NCBI GenBank assembly: GCA_000004985.1
Contig: GG738890.1
Source of the DNA: Naegleria gruberi
Taxonomy: Eukaryota
DNA length: 64,000 nt
Strand: one strand, 5' to 3'
The notes beneath the pieces are model-generated. The model saw nothing but the letters and a program-made list of their open reading frames with translations. It had not been told where the DNA came from and searched no databases. A program made the translations under genes and the position numbers. Shown here one piece after another: positions 13,437 to 60,854 of this stretch. Within the stretch, counting starts at the first letter, position 1, and each line of letters begins with the position of its first letter.

Positions 13437-14465
13437 ATGCCACCATTCAAATGTTCGATTAATACTGATGACAATGATGATGATCGAATGCTGAAGAAAT
13501 TACAGGCCCTGAATAAGCCAAATCCACCTCCGAAGACTAAATCATCTCATAAGAAAAGAATGGAAGATAAAAATCAATTAAAAATTTCTCCAATTGGAAT
13601 TCCATTTGAGGTAATTTTTGATCATGTGGTGAAATATTTGGATATTGGAACGGCTCATAAGAAATTGAGATTAGTTTCAAGGCAGTGGAATGATATTATT
13701 TTGGGAAATGATGAGGATTATTCAGTGGAGTTTGAGATTGATATTGATTTTTCTAGGCAGCAATTTTTGAGTAAGAAATTTTACTCAACTGCTGAACGTG
13801 GATTTTTCAAAAATGTTACAAAACTTACAATGAAAGCATTGCCTCAAGGGATGAAGAAGACAGAAAATCGTACATTAATTCCAGGTAAAACGATTGTTAC
13901 GAGAGGTTACAAGGAAAATGTTGGTGGAAGTGTTCTCAAATTCTTTCCAAATTTGAAAGTTTTGAATTTGAATGAAAATGAAATTCCAGAAGAAAAATTC
14001 AATTGGCTTTTAGACTTGAAATCCAATCAATTGGAAGAGCTTTATTTGGAGGGTAATGATTTTAAATTGAAAACTTGTGAACACATCAGTTCATGTGAAA
14101 ATCTACAGAGCTTGACAGTTTTAAATTTATCCCACAACCAACTCACTGATGCAGGATGTAAATTACTATCTCAGAGTGTTTGTCTTCAAAATCTCAAAAA
14201 CTTGAACATTTCCTCAACTGATTCCTCTCTTGACGGCTTGATGTATATTTCCAATGCAACATTTTCATGCAATTTAACAATTTTGAGAGCAAACAATAAT
14301 AATCTTTCAGATGCATTTCATCAAAGAATCACAAATGGAGAATTTAAATTCAAATCTCTTCAAACTTTCTCAATTAGAAATTGTGAAATATCACAAGAAA
14401 CTCAAACCCAAATTGCAAAGGACAAGAAATTGATTTCTACTACATTGGATCGAATCCTCCTGTAA
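13437..14465 (+). CDS. F-box-like / leucine-rich-repeat protein
   Basis: This 342-aa ORF has an N-terminal F-box-like segment IPFEVIFDHVVKYLDIGTAHKKLRLVSRQWNDII. It is followed by LRR units such as LKVLNLNENEI, LEELYLEGNDF, LTVLNLSHNQLTDAGCKLL and LKNLNIS. Confidence 0.6.
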   Translation: MPPFKCSINTDDNDDDRMLKKLQALNKPNPPPKTKSSHKKRMEDKNQLKISPIGIPFEVIFDHVVKYLDIGTAHKKLRLVSRQWNDIILGNDEDYSVEFEIDIDFSRQQFLSKKFYSTAERGFFKNVTKLTMKALPQGMKKTENRTLIPGKTIVTRGYKENVGGSVLKFFPNLKVLNLNENEIPEEKFNWLLDLKSNQLEELYLEGNDFKLKTCEHISSCENLQSLTVLNLSHNQLTDAGCKLLSQSVCLQNLKNLNISSTDSSLDGLMYISNATFSCNLTILRANNNNLSDAFHQRITNGEFKFKSLQTFSIRNCEISQETQTQIAKDKKLISTTLDRILL

Positions 14466-15898: not shown

Positions 15899-17254
15899 TT
15901 AAAAGTTGAACTCTTCTAATGTTTGATATTGGAATTGTTCCAACTCTTCTCTTGTCTTTTTCTTTGGTTTGAGAGGTTTGGCAAAGTAAGGAAGTTTCAA
16001 TTCTAGATTTTTCACTAATTTCAAACTTTCTTTCAAGGTTTCTACTTTCGTTTCAGAGAGATTAGTTCTTTCAATATTTAAATATTGCAAATTTTTCATC
16101 AAACACAAATGTTCTATACTGAAATCATCAATTTTTGTGCCATCCAAATCTAAACCTTTCAGCTGTTTCATTTTAGATAGGTAGAGAGCTCCAATATTTC
16201 GAATAGGATTTTCTCCAAGATTAAGCTTTGTCAGATTCTTCATTTTGGAAATAAATTGTACACCTCGTTCATCTATTCTATTGCGGATTAGTTCTAATTG
16301 AGATAGATTCTCTAGTTTTGAAATAAATTGCACTCCATCATTTCCTATATTATTATAACTCAAAGAAAGATATTCGAGTGATTGTAGCAATGATAAATAT
16401 TCAACTCCTTCATCATCTATTTTGTTATATGCAAGACTTAGATATTTCAAATTTGAAAGTTTGACTAAATGACGTAAAGATTCACTTCCAAAATTATTTC
16501 CAAACAATTTCAATTTTGAAAGAGTGGTAATTTGTGAAATGTTTCCCAGACCAATCTCATCAATATTTGATGCTTCCAATTCAAGTGTAATAAGGGGGAG
16601 TTTAGAAATATATTCCATGCACTTTCCTCCAAGATCAACTCCATTCAAATTCAAATGATTGAGATTGGAAATTTCACTCAATTGTTCAATATCATCCATG
16701 GATAGAACATTTTTCGATAAATCCAACTTTTTCAGACCTTTCAATTTCTTTAAATGATATAATCCTCCACTGACCTTATTATATGGGAGGGTGAGCTCCT
16801 CTAATGAGTTCAAATTTGAGAAATATTGTAAACTCTTTGGCCCCAAATTACATGAGCAAGCATTCAACCTCTTTAAACATTTAAACTTTGAAAGATAAAT
16901 TGCATTTTCATCTCCAATATAACTGCCATCAATTATTAACTCTTTCAAATTCTCAAGATATGGAAAATTCTCCAAAATTGCAACTCCCACACTTCGACAA
17001 CTAAATTTAACCATTGAAGATAACATTCCACTATCACAACATTCCCTAAATGATTCCTCCTTCTCAAATTCCATACCAATAGAGAAGCTTCTGGTCATTG
17101 AGAAGGGTGTTCCTTGTATTAGACTCTGCCACTGCTTGCACACATGCTGAAAATAACACAACAATTCAGAGCCATCAATGAATGAAAATATTTGATCTCT
17201 AATGATCTCTGCTGGGAGAATTTGAGAAAAATCTGTGAGTTGTTTTTCTTGCAT
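15899..17254 (-). CDS. F-box / RNI-type leucine-rich-repeat protein
   Basis: The 451-aa protein has an N-terminal F-box ILPAEIIRDQIFSFIDGSELLCYFQHVCKQWQSLI. It is followed by about 14 LRR_RI-like units (LSLAYNKIDDEGVEYLS.., LSLSYNNIGNDGVQFIS.., LELIRNRIDERGVQFIS..). The ATG at 17254 was verified. Confidence 0.65.
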   Translation of the reverse strand: MQEKQLTDFSQILPAEIIRDQIFSFIDGSELLCYFQHVCKQWQSLIQGTPFSMTRSFSIGMEFEKEESFRECCDSGMLSSMVKFSCRSVGVAILENFPYLENLKELIIDGSYIGDENAIYLSKFKCLKRLNACSCNLGPKSLQYFSNLNSLEELTLPYNKVSGGLYHLKKLKGLKKLDLSKNVLSMDDIEQLSEISNLNHLNLNGVDLGGKCMEYISKLPLITLELEASNIDEIGLGNISQITTLSKLKLFGNNFGSESLRHLVKLSNLKYLSLAYNKIDDEGVEYLSLLQSLEYLSLSYNNIGNDGVQFISKLENLSQLELIRNRIDERGVQFISKMKNLTKLNLGENPIRNIGALYLSKMKQLKGLDLDGTKIDDFSIEHLCLMKNLQYLNIERTNLSETKVETLKESLKLVKNLELKLPYFAKPLKPKKKTREELEQFQYQTLEEFNF

Positions 17255-18329: not shown

Positions 18330-20303
18330 TTATTGCTTTGCAAATCGGCTTGGTAGCTTGTCTGGTATGGATAATAGGGATGGACATGAGAGAGCTTGTT
18401 TAATTTGTGTATCTTTCCTCAAGTGTTTAGGAGCATACAAGTATACAACTGATGAGTACCTTTCCATGCATTCCAATAGGAGATCCTTGTCAGATCTAAC
18501 TCTTTCTGAAGCATAATTGAAAATCTCGCCACCTGAATTTTCAATCACTGTCTTATCATCCCTCATCTTGTAGGTCAATAAACGAGGATCTATATTGCTC
18601 AAATCTGAAGGATATTTTTCTCTCAAGATGTCAATTGGTACCACTCCATACTTCAACAAATCTTGATTCGATTCAAAGGCCATACTCCAGAAAGTTTTAT
18701 CCTTACGAAGCTTACTACTCATGAGAACGTTTGTAAATGCTGAAATTTCAAGCAAATGCAACATAAACTCATCATCTTTCAAGTATTCTGCTGGAATGAA
18801 ATTTTTAACTGCATTGTAATTCATAGCATAGTCGATATCATCATTTTCCATATTTCTCAGTATTTCCAAGATTTGATTCATTGTCAATTGTAGTCCACTG
18901 ACATATGTCAAAGCTGTAGGATTTGCTAATATTTTGACATCATTCTTGAGAGAATCACCAATGAAAAGAGCACTTTTTTCATTGATTTCAATACATTCTA
19001 ACATGAATTCCCTATTATTTCTCAATTCAGGAGAAGCAATACTTAAGAAAATTACATTTCTATTTGAGATTTCCTCAAGGATTACATCTCTATCTTCCAA
19101 ATATTCATTAGTCTTGTAATTTCTATGGAAATGTTGATTGATAACTTCAACCATGAGTGTTAAATTGTTCAACAATTCTGGCTCTACTGATTCAACATCC
19201 AATGTTACCTGCAAGAACCTTAAAATGTCCTCCTTTGTCTTGATTTTGAATGCACTTTCTTTCAAATCAATAGTATAGACCCAGTGTTTAGCCACTTCTG
19301 GATCATTGACAAATTCTGTTTGAACACGATTTGGATCTACTGAATAAGGGTACTGTTTCATTAATCTGATTGTAAAATCCTTATCCTTTCTTAAGCTATG
19401 ATGCAAGAAAATGTGAGAACTATTGATATTGAACAAGTCAAAGTAAGCATCCTTATCCTTTCTAATCTCAGAAGGAAAAAACGCTGGAATATTTTGAAAA
19501 TAACAATCTGGATCAGTTTCAAACATTTTCTTGACTGCTCCCAATATTTCTGGATCTCTTCTCAATTCAATACTGAGATATGGATAGAAATTAGCATTGG
19601 CTTTCAAAAACTCGACCAGATCCTTCTTATCTCCTTCTTGCATAATTTTCACATACTTTGTCATATTTCCTATCATTTCCTCATCTGGATAAAGTTCATT
19701 ACCAAACAATGAAATTGGTTTGATTACATGAATTGGAATACTTTCAATCCAATCTTTGATATGCCCAATGCATTTCAATGATGGGAACATTGAAGTACCT
19801 GTAAATATGAAAAATAAGCCATTTCTCTTATCTAAAAGTGTCAATACTGAAGTGAAATGTCCTTTGTGTACCATAATCAAATTCTCTTGCCATTGATTTT
19901 CACCAAATTCACTATTCAATATCAAGGGAAAGGTTGAGTGTTCAGAGATTGGTGTTTCTGCAATAAATTCCCAATCATCAACTGGGGCAATAGAAATTAA
20001 ATTAGAGAAGTGATATCTGCCACTTGCACAATTAGTCAACCAAACCTTCAAGTGAAATTGCATATTGGTAAAACCAAATTGATTAATTAAATTGGTTAAT
20101 TGTTCATTGCTGAGTACAGGAGAATCATAATCATGGGCAAGTTCTTGGCAATATTTATGCCACTTGTCAATCAAGTCATTCTTCTCTTCTGTTTGATAAA
20201 TTGCATCAAAGGTTGAATTTATCAATCTGTTGTGTGCTCTGTCTTCTGTTGAAAGGAATGGGAAAATCCTAACCACAACCTCTGGGATGTTGAAGATATT
20301 CAT
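18330..20303 (-). CDS. F-box-like N-terminus + DUF4116-type repeat protein
   Basis: This 657-aa ORF has a verified ATG. The N-terminus IPEVVVRIFPFLSTEDRAHNRLINSTFDAI is F-box-like. The C-terminal half contains repeated ~35-aa units of the form ..EL/LR(K/R)DKxF(M/T)L..I.....AL.. (LSIELRRDPEILGAVKK, SLRKDKDFTIRLMKQ, SPELRNNREFMLECIEIN, SKLRKDKTFWSMAF, SERVRSDKDLLLECMER, PKHLRKDTQIKQAL). These are typical of DUF4116 repeats. Confidence 0.5.
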   Translation of the reverse strand: MNIFNIPEVVVRIFPFLSTEDRAHNRLINSTFDAIYQTEEKNDLIDKWHKYCQELAHDYDSPVLSNEQLTNLINQFGFTNMQFHLKVWLTNCASGRYHFSNLISIAPVDDWEFIAETPISEHSTFPLILNSEFGENQWQENLIMVHKGHFTSVLTLLDKRNGLFFIFTGTSMFPSLKCIGHIKDWIESIPIHVIKPISLFGNELYPDEEMIGNMTKYVKIMQEGDKKDLVEFLKANANFYPYLSIELRRDPEILGAVKKMFETDPDCYFQNIPAFFPSEIRKDKDAYFDLFNINSSHIFLHHSLRKDKDFTIRLMKQYPYSVDPNRVQTEFVNDPEVAKHWVYTIDLKESAFKIKTKEDILRFLQVTLDVESVEPELLNNLTLMVEVINQHFHRNYKTNEYLEDRDVILEEISNRNVIFLSIASPELRNNREFMLECIEINEKSALFIGDSLKNDVKILANPTALTYVSGLQLTMNQILEILRNMENDDIDYAMNYNAVKNFIPAEYLKDDEFMLHLLEISAFTNVLMSSKLRKDKTFWSMAFESNQDLLKYGVVPIDILREKYPSDLSNIDPRLLTYKMRDDKTVIENSGGEIFNYASERVRSDKDLLLECMERYSSVVYLYAPKHLRKDTQIKQALSCPSLLSIPDKLPSRFAKQ

Positions 20304-20707
20304 TTTTTTTAATGCTTATCTCACAGGGAGTTATGTGTCCATTATTTAAAGGTTACACCAGTCTATTCAAGGTTTCATATCTGTTTATAATTTCTTCCAA
20401 ATTTACTGCCATGGATGGTAACATCTTATCAAATGCAAGTGTAAAAAAGCAGTCTTCAATCATAATAAATGTGAATAGAATAAAAATCTCAATTTCCAAA
20501 AATAAATTCATCTTCACAACCATCCAAACAGAATTGGATTGCCAAGTCAAACCCCCAAGGAATATTATTGATGATAAAGCAGATGAAGGAGCTAAATATT
20601 AACTATTCTTTATATTGGTGACAACTCAATAAATCTTTTTTCCCTTTTTCCATTACATTAATTTACTAAACTTTTAAAAATAAAAATCACAGTTTACTAA
20701 GGCTTTC

Positions 20708-21685
20708 ATGATGAAAAAATCAACTAATCAATACAACAAGAATAATTATCATCAAAATATGAATAATTCAAGAAGGCAAATACCTCAATCACAACAACAT
20801 CAATCGGTAGTTTCTTCTAATAATAATAATCAAACAATGAATAGGATAAACAATATAAATAATATGAACACCAATAGTGCAACAATTGGATCAAATTCTC
20901 AAAAGCCTTCAATTATTGTTCATCAAAGACTAAGATATCCTCCTGCTAGAAATGAGTTGAGTAAATATTATTCAATCCGAAACGCTGTTGATGATGAGCA
21001 GATGGCTGATGTTATATTTCCAACAATGAGATTAGCCTTCATTATTGTTAGCATTGATCATATTCACTTCCCTAATGAAAATAACAAGGAACACGGAGTT
21101 GCATCAAATACTGTAAATAATCAGAGAAAGGCTACAATAGAAGAGCTTGTCTCCATTGGATCATTCTTTGAAAGACCATTTGTAATATGTATGATTTCAA
21201 ATCCAACAATGCTTGGAAGATTTACCGAATTGCAAAATATATTCACTTCAAAAGTAGTGGAGAGACAAACTGTGAGAGAAATCTATGTTGAAAACTCAAA
21301 GAAAGAGAATAAGAAAGTGGTTGTTAAGGATGATACTTTTCCACCAACTCTATTCAGACCTCCTCAACTTCTTCTTTGTAGCTCTGTGAGTGGTATGATG
21401 AATTGTATTCAAGAGTTGACCAAAATAGAAAGCAGAAAGAGCAGGGTAAAGCAAACTGAACAAGAAATGTTAGAAGCTCCTCAATTTGCTCAACAAGTTG
21501 CAGAGCAGATCTTTACCAATTCTGAGATTGGACATGGGTTGTCCTCTTACGAAACTAGCATCCTCTTGCAGGGAATGGGATCTGTCTCCAATGTCATTCT
21601 TTCACAAAACTACCAAGAGATTATCAACAAAACTCCACTTGAAACAAGGAAGGCCAAACTTGTTTTTGAGTATTTCAACCAATAA
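20708..21685 (+). CDS. N/Q-rich hypothetical protein (325 aa)
   Basis: The ORF has a verified ATG. Its N-terminal third is poly-N/Q low complexity, typical of dictyostelid proteins. The C-terminal two-thirds are non-repetitive. No family recognised. Confidence 0.35.
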   Translation: MMKKSTNQYNKNNYHQNMNNSRRQIPQSQQHQSVVSSNNNNQTMNRINNINNMNTNSATIGSNSQKPSIIVHQRLRYPPARNELSKYYSIRNAVDDEQMADVIFPTMRLAFIIVSIDHIHFPNENNKEHGVASNTVNNQRKATIEELVSIGSFFERPFVICMISNPTMLGRFTELQNIFTSKVVERQTVREIYVENSKKENKKVVVKDDTFPPTLFRPPQLLLCSSVSGMMNCIQELTKIESRKSRVKQTEQEMLEAPQFAQQVAEQIFTNSEIGHGLSSYETSILLQGMGSVSNVILSQNYQEIINKTPLETRKAKLVFEYFNQ

Positions 21686-21689
21686 AGCG

Positions 21690-23405
21690 TTACAGTTTAT
21701 TCATTCTTCTTCCTTTAGCAGCTTGGCCGCTCTCTTTCATCCAAGCAATTGCCTTAGAGTTGAGAAGCACACTATTTCCCTTTATCCAAAGGCCATTATT
21801 AGGTCCAATGATAACTCCCTGCAATTGTTCATATCCTCTTGGTTTGTAGGTTGGAATGGAATCTTGCGAAATGGATTGAATAATTTGTGGAAGAGCTTGA
21901 TAAACGGTTTTTGCATGTTTGTGAGCACAAGTAGCAAGTTTAGTTTCCTTAACATTGGTGGCATCTCCAATTGCAAAGATATGATTGTAAGGTTTACCAT
22001 TTTCATCGAGTACTTGCATGCTTGGATTGACTTTCACGAATCCCTTCTCATCCAAACATTTGGAAAAGGTTGACTCCATAAAATCTGTTTGAGGTTTCAT
22101 ACCTGTACAGATAAAGCACACTGAGAAGCTTAAATTTGATTCCGTCTCCTCACCACTCTCACTCTTTGTGCGTACAGTGAAGGTGTATGGATCTTTCTGA
22201 GCTACAACTTGGCTCTTGAGTAGCACCTTAACATTACCCATTGTTTTGTAAATTTCAGAGACTGATTTGTGAGCTTCAGTGGATGGACGCATCAAAATGT
22301 CAGATCTCTGTATCAGAGTGACATTTTTCTTTTGATATTTTTCAGCTAGGAATCCAGCAACTTCTACACCAACATAACCTCCACCAATTACACATATTTC
22401 ATCTGCATGTTCTTTAGCATTTGAAATGAATTCATGAGATTCTACCAAGCTATCAGCACAATATGTATTTACAAATTTGATTTGGGAATCATTACTAATT
22501 GGTAACTCATTCCAACAAGTACATCCAGGTCCAACTACCAGATAATCATATCTGATAAAGTAGGTATTCTCTCGCTTACTTATTTTTCTAACATCCTCAT
22601 TCTCATTGATTATTTCCTTAGTTTCAAAAAAAACTCCAAACTTTGTGACATTGGTTGCAATTCCCTTAATACAAGTCACTGTTTCTGGGAGAGTTTTTTT
22701 GTGATCTACTGAAATATGATTAACATTATTCTTATCAGAAATAATTGTTGGATAAATTGGAACCAAATCAAGAGTTCCCTCCTTATCAATAACTGTTAAA
22801 TCGAATATTTCATTCAGAATACTCTTACAAATCTTATAACCGCTCATTCCTCCTCCAATTAAAACCAATTTGGGTTTTTGTAAAATCTTGAAAATATCAC
22901 TCTTTGATATCGTTGTACTATTTGATGATTGTGCATGTCCAATCCATCCCAAAACATTCATAATATTTACAAAAATCATTGAATCCTTCTCATTGAGATG
23001 CAACTGTGTACCAATCCAATCAATTAAATCACTCACTAAAAAGCAATGATAGGTCGTACTTCCAAACCATTGAAATCTCTTCTCTGACATTTTAACTCCA
23101 CTGTATGGCTTTTGAAATTCCTTAAAAACAATCATTTTGAGAGCTTTTACAAATTTTCCATCGAATAATTGTTCAAAAAATTCCTTTTTCATTTCTATTG
23201 ATGATGATTTTTCAATAATCATCTTTTCTATAATTTCCTTATCAATTAATTGTTTATATTCCGAAATTATTTGATCATTTAAAAATTCATCATCTTTTTG
23301 CATTCCGTGACTCTGATTTTCACTCATTTTCAATTCATTTTCATCAACATCTTGTAATTGTTCGGAAAAATCCAACACTTCTGTGGCAGCAGATTCAGTG
23401 GCCAT
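21690..23405 (-). CDS. DEP domain + AIF/AIFM2(FSP1)-like FAD/NAD(P)H pyridine-nucleotide-disulfide oxidoreductase
   Basis: The track ORF starts at a GTG; the first ATG (MATESAATE...) is at about 23405. The N-terminal DEP-like segment is KMSEKRFQWFGSTTYHCFLVSDLIDWIGTQLHLNEKDSMIFVNIMNVLGWIGH. Two Rossmann GxGxxG sites follow: KLVLIGGGMSGYK and ICVIGGGYVGVEVAGFLAEKYQKKNVTLIQRS, then FICTGMKP and IFAIGDATNV. These align well with AIFM2/AMID. Confidence 0.65.
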   Translation of the reverse strand: MATESAATEVLDFSEQLQDVDENELKMSENQSHGMQKDDEFLNDQIISEYKQLIDKEIIEKMIIEKSSSIEMKKEFFEQLFDGKFVKALKMIVFKEFQKPYSGVKMSEKRFQWFGSTTYHCFLVSDLIDWIGTQLHLNEKDSMIFVNIMNVLGWIGHAQSSNSTTISKSDIFKILQKPKLVLIGGGMSGYKICKSILNEIFDLTVIDKEGTLDLVPIYPTIISDKNNVNHISVDHKKTLPETVTCIKGIATNVTKFGVFFETKEIINENEDVRKISKRENTYFIRYDYLVVGPGCTCWNELPISNDSQIKFVNTYCADSLVESHEFISNAKEHADEICVIGGGYVGVEVAGFLAEKYQKKNVTLIQRSDILMRPSTEAHKSVSEIYKTMGNVKVLLKSQVVAQKDPYTFTVRTKSESGEETESNLSFSVCFICTGMKPQTDFMESTFSKCLDEKGFVKVNPSMQVLDENGKPYNHIFAIGDATNVKETKLATCAHKHAKTVYQALPQIIQSISQDSIPTYKPRGYEQLQGVIIGPNNGLWIKGNSVLLNSKAIAWMKESGQAAKGRRMNKL

Positions 23406-24022
23406 GGTTGTTGTATTTTTTTGTGTTGTTGTAATGTTCTGTTGCAATGCATCCCAATATTTCAAGAGAATTAAATTTGTGCGCACGAAGAGGAGTTTTT
23501 AACGAATATTTTGCCATCCGATTTAATAAGTGGACATTTGGCATGGATTGAGATTGGTTTTGGAAGAGGAATTGGAATTGCTGATGACATCCGCTTTCCA
23601 ATAGCCATGGGATTCATCTATTGAGTCTGTGCAAACACTTCTCAACACATTTCCCGCGCTTATTTACTGTTAGCTTTTCAATCATGAAGCTGTGGTAAAG
23701 TATCACCAAACATATGTGTCACAGTAGAAATCTTAATAATAACGATTCAGCAGCATAAATGAACATCTTATTCCCAGAATGTCAATCTTGGTCTATCTTT
23801 GGATCTCTCCAAATTTCTTAATAAATAACAAAATATCTAAGGGAACCATCTCCCTTTTTAGTAATTGTACAATGTGAACTATTTACTGTGAATGAACTTG
23901 TTGAGAGATACAGATGTGATGAACCTGCACAACACACAGTTTTGTAAACTCATACAATGTAGTGAGATGTAGTGAGTGTTGTGGTTCTGATTCAAAATAT
24001 CATTATCTGATTATATTCTTCT

Positions 24023-24943
24023 TTAACATTGACAGTAAGAACTCCAACTCTGATCTGCTCCTGCTTCCTCACTTGCTGAATTTTCTGGCGTTTTTGTCAC
24101 TCCTGGTATTATTATTGATTCCTTAGCTTTTGGCTTTAAATCATTATTCTCTACTTTGGTCAAAATTAGTTTTGTCAATTTGTTAAAAACATCAGAAACT
24201 CCATCTGAATTTTTTTACAATATTTTTTCAATATTTCAATATCCAAGATTACAACATTTCAAATAATTGAATTAATATTGAATTAATTGAACTTGGAAAC
24301 ATACCTCCTGTCACTGCAGAAGCTTCAAAAAATGCAGCATCCATATCATGTGCCAATTGAGATCCTCTCATGAAATTAACCTTTCTTTCATCTTCTTTAT
24401 CTTTTTTATTTCCAACTATAATGCAAGTAACATTATCATCACTCAATTCACGTGCATCCTCAATCCATCGTTTCACATTTTTAAATGATTCTTCATTGGT
24501 TATATCATAAACAACAATGGCACCAATTGCATCTCTATAATAACTTCTCACAACACTTCTATATCTTTCTTGACCTGCACTGTTTAATGTTTCAATGTAT
24601 AATTTGTAAAAATTGTGATTTTTTTGTAAATTTTCAAATAATTTCATTTACGTACGTATCCCAAATTTGAAGTTTAATTCGTTTTCCTCCGCAAATCACA
24701 TTTTTTGATCCAAATTCAACTCCGATGGTGTGTGTTTGGTCTTCATAGACTAGAAAATTGTCATGTTAGTTAAATAATAATGGAAAACTTACAATTTGCT
24801 TCTAAATATCTTCGCATGACACATGACTTTCCTATAGTTTGATAATGTTAATAAAATTGATGATGGAAAATAAATTTACCTGCACCAGAGTCTCCGATAA
24901 CAATTAATTTAAAGCAATAATCCAAAGCGTTGGCTGTTGTCAT
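24023..24943 (-). CDS. Rab-family small GTPase, 5 exons, C-terminal CQC prenylation motif
   Basis: Exons are about complement(join(24023..24204,24305..24579,24656..24749,24793..24831,24880..24943)). Total is 654 nt, giving 217 aa. The product is [74 protein letters not shown]....VGNKKDKE...[15 protein letters not shown]...SYCQC. P-loop, DTAGQ, NKxD, SAx and CXC motifs are all present. All introns have GT..AG ends. Confidence 0.8.
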
Positions 24944-38031: not shown

Positions 38032-41000
38032 TTATTCAAACAATAGAGCAAGGTGAGAGTATTGACATGGGTGAATTTGGTGTGGATGTTGATGCTTGGT
38101 CAATTCTAGAATAAATTTAGCTTCAATGTCATTTGGTAGAGCTTTGCTTAGTTCTTCAATCAGCTCTGTCTTGGCTTTCTTAAGAGACTCTTCTTTATAC
38201 TTTGGTTCTGAAATATGAAGAGCATCTTTCAACTTGGAAAGTTGTTTGATCATCATCTTTACAAGACTATAACCCTTGATGAATGGATTGTGGTCACGAT
38301 CTTGTTGTGCAGCATCTGAACTGCCCATTTGAGGATCATCCATAAAGTATGATTCTTCGTTCAATGATTCACATCTTTCATTACCAACTTCATTGAACAA
38401 CATGGACAATAAATTGCCATTGTTTGGATTGAAAGGATCCATGAGTGGAGAGAATGAAATTGAATCATCAAATTGTTGCATTGCATCGTGTTCATGATCA
38501 TTAACCATAACTTGTTGTTGTGGTGGCTGTGGCTGGGTTGGCATTTGTTGTTGTACATTTTGGAAAGCATCTGGTAAATTGGCACCAAATAATCTTGATG
38601 AATTTGTTTCGTTCATACTTTGCAAAAGTGTTGCATTCTCAATTTGATTTATCAAATCTCCATAAAGCTTTTGAACAACACCATAACGTGTTGACAAAAC
38701 TTTAAGAGCTCTCAAGTCATCCTTAAAGTCCACAGATGTGTCACCTGTTTGTCTCCAATATTCTAAACGAACAGCAACGGCTTTGGCAATACCATTTGCA
38801 ATGACAAATGGAGCAAAAATGTACTTTTCTGTTTTGGTATATGAAATTATTTCATTTGCATAAGAAACCAAAACTGCTGCAGGAATATTCTCCACCTTAC
38901 TGTATAAATCTAAATAAAATTCTCTAATAAAAACATTTGAGAATAAACAGAACAAATCACCTTGTGCTTGATACATGGTTTCGAATAATAAACTATAATA
39001 TGTGTGTGCAATTCTAACCACATTTTCAATAAGAGGCAAATATTGACTACTGATTTGACCCTTTTCAGCCTTATCAAAGAAACTGGTATCGAGCTTGATT
39101 CTGGAGGCAAAAATACCGAATAATTTAGTAGCACTACTTGGTTTACCAGTAACTTTTGACATGTAATCAGATAAAAATGTTTCCTTATACCTAACTAAAA
39201 TACGTAACAAAAATTTAGGAAGTGAAGGACTGTCTTGTGCTGAATAGCTTGCTTGAGTTGCTCCAACTTGTTGATCTGTTGGTCCTCCATAGCCATGAAG
39301 TCCAATCATTTGTTTAACCATGGCCAAGTAGAGAGAAGTCTTTCTCATGTCTCCTTCACCACAAACATAGTCAGTCAAATAGTGCAAAGCTACAGCAATA
39401 TAAATATTATCCATATTATCAAAATATTTAGAAATCTTTTCCTTAGCAAGATTGTGCATGTACTCCATAAGTTTTTGTCTATAGTCACCCTTAAGAACAT
39501 AGTCACCACTTTGTTGAAGTGCTAATGCTTGAATCGAATATAAAATTGAAATCAAACCATCTTGTGTTGTTGAATCCAATTGCATATGGTTAAGTATCAT
39601 TGATGCATTAGAATTACCATCATTTCCCATTAATTGTTCTATTAATCCTTCCATCAAGCTCTTGTCAACCAAGGCGAAACCTGCGCACAATTCTTTATAA
39701 TACAAATCTAGGAGTTTGTGCGCAGTATATCTGAAATTGATTGAGTGTACAAAAGATGACAACATAACTGAAATTGAGTTTGGATCTTTAAAATCTCTTT
39801 CAGAATATGCCATTGGATTAAATTGATGTGTTAAAAGTGGGGAAGAGCCATGAAGGGATGATGGCAGAGGTGACATTTCATTGTGATTCGAAGATCCAGA
39901 AGATGAGGATTGTACAACACTATGAGGAGTATGAGTAACTGGATTCGAAAAGTTTGACGACGTGTTCATAGAAATTGAAGGAACTGCTGGAGAAGCTGTT
40001 GGTATTGTAGTTGGAGGAATAGCAACATTTACATTAGTAGTAGAGGGTGGTGGACAAATTGTTTGTGGTACCTCAGTGGTAATTGGATTTGTTGGTGGTA
40101 CACTTTCCTTATCCTTTTTCTTCTTCTTTTTCTTTCTATTTTGTTGGTCTTGTCCTTTTCTACTTTTCAAATAAACACAATCCTTTCCCATCTTTTTACA
40201 ATAATTACAAACTGGTAATTCTCTACTACATTTCTTGTGTCTTGATCTACAATTGGTACAAGCAATTTGAGCAAGTTGGAAATTACCTCCTTGCTCATCA
40301 ATAGCAGTCTCTGTGAAAGTAGTATTCGTTGGTGAATAAGGAGCAGTAGTTGAAGCAGCATCATATGATTCAGCTATCTTTTTCTTGGACTTTTGCTTCT
40401 TCTTGCTTGGAGGTGGTTGAATACTTTCATCACTTGAGGATTCACTAGATGTTGAGGAACCACTCGATTTGTTTCCATTACCTCCATCAGTATTACTAAC
40501 ATCTTGTTGTTGTTGAGTTGCTGCTAACATTGCCTGAGTAGCATCGGTAGAATGTTGTGGTTGATAGGAATGACTCATATATTGATGAGAAAGATCTGCC
40601 CGAGGAGGTGGAGGTTGAAAGTATCCTTGATGATGAGGAGGTTGATAAAAACCTCCATTTGTAGTCTGGTTTGGATGATGATAATAGAGAGGATAGTGAG
40701 GTGGCAAAACTGGTTGTTGTTGTTGTTGTGGATGCATCATTGAATGTTGTTGCTGATGATGCTGGTGATTTGGAGGTGGTGGATAGGAATGAGCAGTTTG
40801 TTGAGTGTACATGGATGGTGGCAATGTAGATTTACTTCCATCATGAAGTTTAGCCCAGTCTGCCATGCTATGTAATCCTCCTGCTCCTCCCAGTGTTGTA
40901 CTATTATTGGTAGGAATGTTTGGAAAATGATGTTGTGGATAATGATTATTACTTGTTGGGGGTAGTGAATGAGAAGTTTCATTCATTTTCGGATCTAAAT

Positions 41001-41358
41001 TACTACTACTAGTATTGCTATTATTTGAAAAAAGGTGATTGGAAGGGGAGGTAAAGGATGAAATACTATTACAATCCAATAAATTTAGGGAGGATGTTGT
41101 GGACAAGGGAGATTGAACAATAGATGACGACAAGGGTGTGGTTGTAGACGGAAGTAATGTACAAGAACTCTCACAATCTAACTGTGTTGGAGTTAGCACT
41201 GTTGGTTGCTGTTGATAATATTGTTGTACATGTTGATGATGATGCGGAGAAGTTATTGTTGTTGGAAAATTATCATGATAATTGTTAGTGGTCAACATTG
41301 TGAATTCAATTTCGCTACCAACCTTTGAATCAACTACAGAGGAGGAGTTTTTGCTCAT
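38032..41358 (-). CDS. Zn(II)2Cys6 (Gal4-type) binuclear-cluster transcription factor, Q-rich, 1108 aa
   Basis: The ATG was verified. A canonical CX2CX6CX6CX2CX6C cluster CTNCRSRHKKCSRELPVCNYCKKMGKDCVY is preceded by long poly-Q/H/P tracts and a lysine-rich NLS-like stretch. A large C-terminal helical region is arranged like a fungal-type transcription factor middle homology domain. Confidence 0.75.
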   Translation of the reverse strand: MSKNSSSVVDSKVGSEIEFTMLTTNNYHDNFPTTITSPHHHQHVQQYYQQQPTVLTPTQLDCESSCTLLPSTTTPLSSSIVQSPLSTTSSLNLLDCNSISSFTSPSNHLFSNNSNTSSSNLDPKMNETSHSLPPTSNNHYPQHHFPNIPTNNSTTLGGAGGLHSMADWAKLHDGSKSTLPPSMYTQQTAHSYPPPPNHQHHQQQHSMMHPQQQQQPVLPPHYPLYYHHPNQTTNGGFYQPPHHQGYFQPPPPRADLSHQYMSHSYQPQHSTDATQAMLAATQQQQDVSNTDGGNGNKSSGSSTSSESSSDESIQPPPSKKKQKSKKKIAESYDAASTTAPYSPTNTTFTETAIDEQGGNFQLAQIACTNCRSRHKKCSRELPVCNYCKKMGKDCVYLKSRKGQDQQNRKKKKKKKDKESVPPTNPITTEVPQTICPPPSTTNVNVAIPPTTIPTASPAVPSISMNTSSNFSNPVTHTPHSVVQSSSSGSSNHNEMSPLPSSLHGSSPLLTHQFNPMAYSERDFKDPNSISVMLSSFVHSINFRYTAHKLLDLYYKELCAGFALVDKSLMEGLIEQLMGNDGNSNASMILNHMQLDSTTQDGLISILYSIQALALQQSGDYVLKGDYRQKLMEYMHNLAKEKISKYFDNMDNIYIAVALHYLTDYVCGEGDMRKTSLYLAMVKQMIGLHGYGGPTDQQVGATQASYSAQDSPSLPKFLLRILVRYKETFLSDYMSKVTGKPSSATKLFGIFASRIKLDTSFFDKAEKGQISSQYLPLIENVVRIAHTYYSLLFETMYQAQGDLFCLFSNVFIREFYLDLYSKVENIPAAVLVSYANEIISYTKTEKYIFAPFVIANGIAKAVAVRLEYWRQTGDTSVDFKDDLRALKVLSTRYGVVQKLYGDLINQIENATLLQSMNETNSSRLFGANLPDAFQNVQQQMPTQPQPPQQQVMVNDHEHDAMQQFDDSISFSPLMDPFNPNNGNLLSMLFNEVGNERCESLNEESYFMDDPQMGSSDAAQQDRDHNPFIKGYSLVKMMIKQLSKLKDALHISEPKYKEESLKKAKTELIEELSKALPNDIEAKFILELTKHQHPHQIHPCQYSHLALLFE

Positions 41359-42241
41359 TTTTAAAAAGGTAGTTAAATATGAAGAAAGGGCAGCAAACGT
41401 TATTTGGGCAAGTGACGGCTTGTGAACAGTTAAATGTTAATAAACTGTAGGATTTTGTCGTTGTTGTTGATGACAATCTAGCACTACCAACATGCAAGGT
41501 GCTGTAGGGTTTATCGTAGTATGAATATTCTGTTGGACAATAACTTCAAGCTTGAAGAGGATTGGCACTAGTTACTGTATTGATGAGGGACTTTCCAAAC
41601 GGAAGTTTTAAATATTATAAAGACCTTCTTGATGTTCAAAAAAGGAATTAAATCTTGGCTGTAGTGGTTGTAAGAATAATTGACTAGAACAATGAATGTG
41701 TATCAAGTATTGCATGCAAAATCAAATGATGATAATTCTTTTGACAACTGTCCTTAAAATGGGAATATTCTGTTTTGTAAAACGCGAATCTTTCTTAGGT
41801 GTCCAATATTGATTTTATGTGCGAGATTTTAATAGTGAAGATTGTCAAAGGTTCTTTGATATCTTGACAATTAAACAACACAATGATACAACAACAAAAC
41901 AATCAAACGAATAGCAGGGGTGATAGGGTTTCCTCCTTTTTTTCTTGCTGAATAAATTGTTCGTCCTTGATGATTCTTCGGAGACCGATCCTAAACGCAA
42001 TTCTCATCACTTTGGTGGACTTTAGCACTTTGATTCATGCTCCACAGGCTGTGTTGATTGTTTGTGAATTGTAATTGCATATTAAATAGAAGATGTTTGG
42101 AAATGAAAAGTCCTTTGATGATTTCCTCAAATCACCTTAAAGGTTTTAAATCAATTGATTTTCTCTGAATTCTTATTGAAACCATTTTTGAAAGAGCTTG
42201 AGTTGGTTTCTAAAATTGGAAAACCAAGTCAGCCTTTTAAT

Positions 42242-60162: not shown

Positions 60163-60854
60163 AAGTAATAAATAGTAGATTAAATACGCAGTTTAGGAAC
60201 TTGTTTGATATTCCAAACCTAATTAGAGCAAAAGACTACAGCACCACAGGTTCCCAAGTTGTCTCCAACCTCAGTACTGATGTGGCTCGACGATGCTTAA
60301 CTTCTCAAATCGGACGGGATGAGGTGCATTCATCGTGATATGGCCGTAGCCATTCAATTCATTATCGCTATGAATATAAAGAATATGGAACTTCTTTTGC
60401 ATAACTTAATGCAACTTAGTAATACTTAAGGTGGTTAACCTATTAAGCTCTGTAAAAAGTTATCCTTGATCAATCGATTCTCACGACCAACTCAATACAA
60501 ACTTTTAGTAATTAAGTTATAACAATTTAGTAACATTATTTTTGGATATTCTTTTTAGTTTCATTGGACGGGAAGCCTGCCAGGAATATGACTGTGCATA
60601 CAGTTGTATGAACAGTGAAGGCAACGAAGACAGAATCTTGTTGGTTCAGGTTTTGTTTGAAGAAATTGATTAGGTTGATCACCCTTCTATAAATTGAATA
60701 TTTGACTGGTAAATTGATGGATGCAAGTTTTGGTTTCTCATTTTCTGATCAAATCGAAATTGAAACTTCAAACAGTAGCTGCCTTAATTTAACCATTCTT
60801 AGCTTAAAATAAAATTTACAAACCAAGAAAGATGAAATTCTAAATTGATATGCT

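Follow-up and report, generated by a model that had tools for sequence, protein, structure and literature searches.

Results

The DEP-reductase gene and its reading frame

The gene described here lies in a 64,000-nucleotide stretch of contig GG738890.1 of Naegleria gruberi (GenBank assembly GCA_000004985.1), referred to below as the window, and encodes a 571-aa protein in which a divergent DEP domain is followed by a flavoprotein oxidoreductase resembling FSP1/AIFM2 (Table 1). Its open reading frame (ORF) begins with the ATG at 23405 of the minus strand, ends with the stop codon at 21690–21692 and has no internal stops; on the upstream side the frame is closed by a stop at a distance of 33 codons, and no further ATG intervenes. 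The start and stop re-derived in this way coincide exactly with both ends of the gene as delimited in an earlier interpretation made from the DNA letters alone (hereafter, the sequence-only reading). Since the DEP segment and the reductase share one continuous frame, they are not separate exons or genes, and the alternative that the N-terminal part belongs to a gene lying upstream was excluded by this continuity together with a DEP-to-Rossmann junction of fixed length across 42 relatives.

The nearest named homolog of the 571-aa protein is the Naegleria lovaniensis ortholog P0002 (45% identity over 94% of the length), which is likewise encoded by one exon, of 1902 nt. Additionally, a metagenomic contig (ENA ERZ929261, L002) is 97.4% identical to positions 19436–23823 of the window (4.4 kb), in genes and spacers alike, and carries a counterpart of the DEP-reductase ORF with 98% amino-acid identity; a very close relative was therefore present in that environmental sample (run ERR1078381, project PRJEB11402). 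Comparison of the two genes gave a ratio of nonsynonymous to synonymous changes (pN/pS) of ~0.32, a value based on just 23 differences, too few to be divided between the domains.

The protein starts with MATES and so has no Gly2. Its first 83 residues have a net charge of −14 and are lineage-specific, being absent or shorter in the orthologs P0002 and P0003, and no domain match was obtained when this segment was scanned with Pfam, RGS included, at E ≤ 10.

Evidence for the DEP domain

According to the sequence-only reading, the first ~200 aa contain a DEP-like segment comparable with the DEP domain of Dishevelled. As a single sequence, this likeness is faint. Pfam DEP (PF00610) matched residues 103–163 (model positions 1–60 of 72) with 16.2 bits and E 0.01, which does not reach the gathering threshold of 32.7 bits, and a phmmer search of the PDB with residues 84–177 gave E ~0.3 for DVL2, Dvl1 and RGS9, with a photosystem I subunit, a non-DEP protein, ranked first. 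Such values would be expected if the resemblance had arisen by chance in a helical or winged-helix region of generic type, or if the fusion were an artefact of the gene model.

At the profile level, however, the likeness to Dishevelled held, and the search results spoke consistently for a DEP domain at residues ~84–175. An N-terminal profile of three orthologs, compared with all PDB sequences, gave 17 matches, 16 of which were DEP domains; among them were DEPTOR (3e-6), DEPDC5 (7e-5), RGS9, DVL2, P-Rex and Dvl1 1fsh (8.8e-5), the last aligned along nearly its full DEP domain. In the metagenome ortholog P0003 (43% identical), Pfam DEP was detected at the homologous position with 25.5 bits (E 1.2e-5), and in distant relatives the domain occupies exactly the corresponding position with 36.9–87.4 bits. 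Alignment by hhalign of the three-ortholog profile to nine Pfam-passing DEP segments of the family gave a probability of 97.6% (E 3e-12), and these nine canonical segments, when used in turn against the PDB, retrieved DEP domains in 43 of 43 matches (best E 2.7e-38), those of DEPTOR and P-Rex being the closest.

An AlphaFold2 model of residues 75–571, built on a 134-sequence alignment, had a mean pLDDT (predicted local distance difference test) of 93.8 and a pTM (predicted template modelling score) of 0.92. Residues 84–175 of this model (pLDDT ~86–95, falling to ~71 in the hairpin) follow the DEP order of a helix, a beta-hairpin arm, a strand, two helices and two short strands; for the fold itself the evidence is this predicted topology, which supports it. 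The DEP homology of the segment is thus regarded as established, the copy found here being a divergent one, and the chance-match explanation, like that of a gene-model artefact, which is contradicted by a continuous ORF conserved in three species, is highly improbable and effectively refuted.

Profile homology and, in the model, the order of secondary-structure elements (three helices with a beta-hairpin arm, then a small C-terminal sheet) are shared with the DEP domains of DEPTOR, P-Rex1/2, Epac, Dishevelled, DEPDC5/Iml1 and RGS7/9, and the core (C/x)F-x-(G/A/V)-S-(D/E)-x-(V/I)-D-W is common to the classical domains and the family. The tail differs, with ...IGHAQ...IFKI here in place of ...HV...F.D...YRF.

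The reductase part

The sequence-only reading had the DEP segment followed by a complete two-Rossmann-fold flavoprotein of the AIFM2/AMID type, and this was borne out for residues 179–571 by Pfam (Pyr_redox_2, E 2e-32; Pyr_redox, E 1e-9) as well as by comparison with known structures. In a sequence search of the PDB, FSP1/AIFM2 came closest (E 6e-19 to 2e-15), far ahead of CoA-disulfide reductases (~4e-8) and of type II NADH:quinone oxidoreductases (NDH-2) such as those of yeast (Ndi1), S. aureus and Caldalkalibacillus (~5e-6), whose sequence similarity is much weaker. The top Foldseek matches of the model were nearly all membrane quinone reductases (Ndi1/NDH-2, FSP1, SQR), and FSP1 stands nearest among solved proteins, whether judged by sequence or by structure.

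The cofactor and catalytic motifs are intact. In the FAD-binding GxGxxG, G184 and G186 do not vary among the 41 DEP-bearing relatives compared (41/41), all but one of which (40/41) also have Gly at 189. The catalytic Glu348, which follows the NAD(P)H-binding GxGxxG, aligns with E156 of human FSP1, a residue described as essential (PMC10516921), and is kept in 40/40 DEP-bearing and 93/93 other relatives, that is, in all 133 sequences with a residue at this column. D481 of the second FAD-binding motif is retained in 39/40 DEP-bearing relatives, and Lys489 is present and conserved across the DEP-bearing clade. Conservation of both GxGxxG motifs, E348, D481 and K489 in this clade indicates that its members are enzymes rather than inactive scaffolds. 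R367/S368, a pair that follows the second Rossmann strand, was considered as a possible sign of NADPH preference; it is not conserved across the clade.

The modelled C-terminus consists of strands and one long helix and resembles the C-terminal domain (CTD) of FSP1. At the same time, the N-myristoylation start (MG) was sought and is absent from the 571-aa protein, and none of the 42 relatives (0/42) starts with MG.

The junction between the two parts

Counted from the conserved aromatic residue in the final strand of the DEP domain, the first Gly of GxGxxG lies 12 residues away in the 571-aa protein and in 27 of 42 relatives, and the spacing stays within 12–14 residues in 38 of 42. Most relatives have a basic KKK/KKR cluster at the junction. 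Judged from the alignment, the DEP domain is joined to strand beta-1 of the FAD domain without a flexible linker, the junction being fixed at ~3 residues.

This arrangement bears on the possibility that the DEP domain acts within the molecule, where it would regulate the enzyme or its oligomerisation, for example by autoinhibition or by shaping a dimer, and that contact with the membrane is made by the CTD alone. DEP1 of P-Rex1 autoinhibits or shapes the active dimer, and it is the DEPTOR and P-Rex domains that the family DEP resembles most; the short junction of invariant length and the appearance of the model as one compact unit (pTM 0.92) point the same way, as does FSP1 itself, whose CTD forms the dimer and the quinone pocket and whose function depends on CTD-mediated dimerisation (PMC10516921). 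Yet the loss of the myristoyl anchor in the clade would lead one to expect some other membrane-targeting element, and most DEP segments of the family are net positive, which suits lipid binding. A purely intramolecular role is considered quite improbable.

Distribution and architectures of the family

A profile search of 1.84 billion representative proteins gave many matches that span the DEP region and the reductase, and at least 40 clusters carry a DEP domain directly before the reductase. Pfam DEP was detected at E ≤ 0.01 in 21/42 candidates covering both parts, and 13/42 have RGS as well. A family-specific DEP hidden Markov model (HMM) recognised the domain in 45 of 334 fetched proteins, a count that is partly circular, as 40 of the 45 carriers had been used to build the HMM. 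When a 5.8-billion-protein database was searched with the 42-member alignment, mostly plain NDH-2 and AIF-like proteins were obtained.

The named members, identified by cluster look-ups and a search seeded with the Balamuthia protein, are those of Naegleria gruberi (XP_002670838), Willaertia magna (KAL9650941), Balamuthia mandrillaris (KAL6073310) and Acrasis kona (KAL0491564.1), the last with the order RGS-DEP-reductase and the database name "apoptosis-inducing factor", and transcripts of Vermistella antarctica and Stenamoeba stenopodia belong to the family too. Most other members are metagenomic, and the database entries of the relatives are unannotated or automatically named. Besides DEP-reductase, the architectures include RGS-DEP-reductase (also in P0154), protein kinase-DEP-reductase (P0342 and P0188, with the kinase at the N-terminus) and DEP-reductase-ankyrin (P0165, with the repeats at the C-terminus); P0223 apparently has two DEP copies. 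Naegleria possesses at least two paralogous types, since N. lovaniensis P0002 is, as noted, 45% identical to the 571-aa protein and N. gruberi P0098 ~30%.

A neighbour-joining tree was drawn from the reductase-only columns; it is a crude tree based on distances and carries no support values. Of the 40 DEP-bearing sequences in it, 39, the 571-aa protein included, fell into one clade of 50, the remaining 11 members of which are DEP-less and mostly short, probably truncated proteins. With the fusion clade defined by a spacing of 12–14 residues at the junction and by grouping of the reductase with DEP-bearing sequences, the 571-aa protein belongs to it on both counts. DEP-reductases thus appear to be a recurrent family of protist proteins that is essentially monophyletic and conserved in Heterolobosea and Amoebozoa, and the tree suggests a single ancient fusion to which signalling domains were added later. 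Conservation in both groups, a single reductase-only clade and a fixed junction length are what would be expected of selection on the fusion.

The additional domains invite a different interpretation, in which the cassette would serve mainly in redox sensing and signalling: the status of NAD(P)H, quinone or oxygen would be reported by the flavoprotein, the DEP domain would couple this state to G-protein-coupled receptor (GPCR) and heterotrimeric G-protein pathways, larger members would carry the output domains, and the 571-aa protein would be the minimal form. AIF, which changes state on NADH binding, offers an analogy. The N-terminal RGS domains of 13/42 relatives and the kinase or ankyrin repeats of others fit this interpretation, and a rigid junction of fixed length with a pTM of 0.92 would fit allosteric coupling. 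The combination of RGS and DEP is common to these paralogous family members, the R7-RGS proteins and yeast Sst2; it is a hallmark of such GPCR-docking regulators, in which DEP docks the protein on GPCRs or membrane anchors (PMC5784254). The family order is, however, RGS-DEP-reductase, unlike the R7-type DEP-(DHEX/GGL)-RGS. Moreover, the 571-aa protein has no RGS (PF00615) match even at E ≤ 10, RGS being confined to paralogous relatives, and Pfam revealed no kinase or other output domain in it either; its catalytic residues are fully conserved, as would be expected of a functioning enzyme, though a sensor might retain them as well, and no precedent was found in the literature searched. A mainly sensory cassette is considered fairly unlikely.

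Comparison with known flavoproteins

Like FSP1/AIFM2, the DEP-reductase protein has an FAD domain and an NAD(P)H domain and, as far as the model indicates, ends in a short CTD made up of strands and a single helix. The two also share the GD motif, both GxGxxG motifs and the catalytic Glu, which is E156 in the human protein and E348 in this one. Identity is, however, just 18–21%, the N-myristoylation motif is missing, and 178 extra N-terminal residues containing the DEP domain are present. The DEP-bearing proteins form their own clade apart from the plain FSP1-like proteins of ~350 aa and are therefore not called FSP1 orthologs. Of the features of FSP1/AMID membership, the two-Rossmann core with its motifs, the catalytic Glu and FSP1 as the nearest solved protein were found, whereas the myristoylation motif was not, and the protein is predicted to work like FSP1 or NDH-2.

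NDH-2 enzymes anchor by a larger C-terminal domain, and mitochondrial NDH-2s carry targeting peptides. The acidic N-terminus of the DEP-reductase protein (Table 1) is unlike a mitochondrial presequence. AIFM1 belongs to the same flavoprotein superfamily, and "apoptosis-inducing factor" recurs among the database names of the relatives; nevertheless, neither an AIF-type CTD nor a mitochondrial presequence was found in the 571-aa protein, and AIF was not its closest structure.

Genomic neighbourhood

The window is AT-rich (~33% GC) and densely occupied by mostly uninterrupted ORFs. The convergent ORF next to the DEP-reductase gene, which encodes a 325-aa product with an Asn/Gln-rich N-terminus and no Pfam match, ends 4 nt before the DEP-reductase stop codon, and the same spacing is seen on ERZ929261 (L002 2157–2160); with so tight a tail-to-tail arrangement, each 3' untranslated region must overlap the opposite gene. 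On the other side, a Ras/Rab GTPase ORF (132 aa) matches Pfam Ras positions 47–152 and lacks the G1/P-loop part, and so probably represents a single exon of a gene with introns, situated immediately upstream of the DEP-reductase gene. A 657-aa ORF with DUF4116 (PF13475; 82.7 bits in total, the best single match at residues 588–629, near the C-terminus) and two leucine-rich-repeat proteins are found further along. Functional context was sought in these neighbours (DUF4116, leucine-rich repeat, Rab fragment, convergent ORF), and all of them are unrelated, as expected in a eukaryote; nor did the genes called at the N. lovaniensis locus reveal any synteny. Elsewhere in the window, a 5S rRNA gene was recognised over its full length (Rfam RF00001, 105 bits, E 4e-22) with protein-coding genes around it, no tRNA gene was detected in the 64 kb, and a local rise in GC (0.367), with a strongly positive GC skew (+0.26), falls inside an ORF of 1108 aa.

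Table 1 Features of the DEP-reductase gene and of other loci in the window
Feature	Residues	Positions	Strand	Description and basis
DEP-reductase coding sequence	1-571	21690..23405	-	571 codons + stop, single exon; ORF list and translation
N-terminal extension	1-83	23157..23405	-	Acidic, helix-prone; composition
Divergent DEP domain	84-175	22881..23156	-	Pfam, ortholog profile, hhalign, AlphaFold2
DEP elements	helix 84-97; hairpin arm ~112-117; strand 121-123; helices 124-135/139-151; strands 155-157/171-174			
Junction QKP	176-178	22872..22880	-	Last DEP strand to Rossmann strand beta-1
FSP1/AIFM2-like FAD/NAD(P)H oxidoreductase	179-571	21693..22871	-	FAD domain, NAD(P)H domain, short CTD
FAD-binding GxGxxG, GGGMSG	184-189	22839..22856	-	Translation, family alignment
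NAD(P)H-binding GxGxxG + Glu348, GGGYVGVE	341-348	22362..22385	-	Alignment to FSP1
Second FAD-binding motif, GD of FAIGDAT	480-481	21963..21968	-	Translation, alignment
C-terminal domain	~525-571	21693..21833	-	Beta-strands, then one long helix; boundary approximate
Convergent ORF		20708..21685	+	325 aa
Ras/Rab GTPase ORF		24249..24647	-	132 aa
DUF4116 ORF		18330..20303	-	657 aa
Leucine-rich-repeat protein		13437..14465	+	
Leucine-rich-repeat protein		15899..17254	-	
5S rRNA gene		60233..60351	-	Rfam
Local GC rise		40001..42000		Inside the ORF of the next row
ORF		38032..41358	-	1108 aa

Discussion

FSP1 must be recruited to membranes for its anti-ferroptotic function, which in animals is achieved via N-myristoylation. 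The gene described here encodes an intact flavoenzyme of the FSP1/AIFM2 (AMID) type, predicted to be cytosolic, in which, as in the whole clade, the DEP domain sits at the N-terminal point where animal FSP1 carries the myristate. This domain would dock the enzyme on the membrane, through acidic phospholipids or a membrane protein such as a GPCR tail, and in doing so would turn the quinone site and the C-terminal domain toward the bilayer. By analogy with FSP1, we favour, with moderate confidence, the interpretation that DEP has taken over from myristoylation the task of holding a peripheral NAD(P)H:quinone reductase on the membrane.

Replacement of the anchor is favoured because the protein starts with MAT, because MG starts are absent from all 42 relatives, and because FSP1 turns its myristoylated N-terminus and its CTD toward the membrane, from which side the quinone enters (PMC10516921). 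Indirect hints of the DEP domain as the docking module are the net charge of +4 of its segment, the mostly positive charge of those of the family and the basic cluster at the junction. In the account that cites Consonni et al. 2014 (PMC5784254), DEP domains are stated to dock on phospholipids and on membrane receptors, GPCR tails included. The sequence-only reading had arrived at a membrane-recruited, FSP1-like lipid-quinone reductase, which is a reasonable interpretation of the gene.

Several points weigh against membrane docking of a quinone reductase by its DEP domain. The domain lies below the Pfam threshold and departs from the consensus, so its binding properties may differ from those of the DEP domains studied so far. 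The quinone specificity of FSP1-like enzymes is not readable from sequence. The rigid junction of fixed length and the high pTM fit an intramolecular regulatory or structural role equally well. Finally, relatives that carry RGS or kinase domains suggest signalling rather than plain antioxidant or quinone metabolism; a signalling role is at least as well indicated by them as recruitment to membranes.

A broader and speculative proposal, which we consider unlikely, is that the DEP-FSP1-like cassette represents an undescribed class of receptor- or G-protein-coupled redox effectors in amoeboid protists, and that in its RGS- and kinase-bearing members the flavin/NAD(P)H state directly gates G-protein or kinase signalling. 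If so, the DEP domain would recruit a quinone reductase to activated GPCRs or to specific lipid domains, membrane redox chemistry and defence against lipid peroxidation would be wired to chemosensory signalling, and the 571-aa gene would be the minimal member of the class.

Domain shuffling is common in protists, and the present finding is the discovery of a domain architecture and not of a new mechanism: a known type of enzyme and a known targeting domain occur in a conserved combination that was not found described. To the sequence-only reading, this architecture was not known from the literature. In the full-text literature searched, the coverage of which is less than all journals, no description of a DEP-AIF or DEP-FSP1 fusion was found; the ortholog survey, with its 40 or more clusters, shows at the same time that the architecture is not peculiar to the N. 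gruberi genome. We know of no previously studied DEP protein with a flavoenzyme as the partner domain, and flavoenzymes would thus be a new class of partners for DEP domains.

For the family as a whole, attachment of a DEP domain at the corresponding N-terminal position would be a natural, conserved alternative to lipid anchoring, and it provides a testable model for the targeting of FSP1-type enzymes without lipidation. The protists concerned include pathogens (Naegleria, Balamuthia), and in these organisms the fusion may directly connect signalling through heterotrimeric G proteins with the redox chemistry of membrane quinones.

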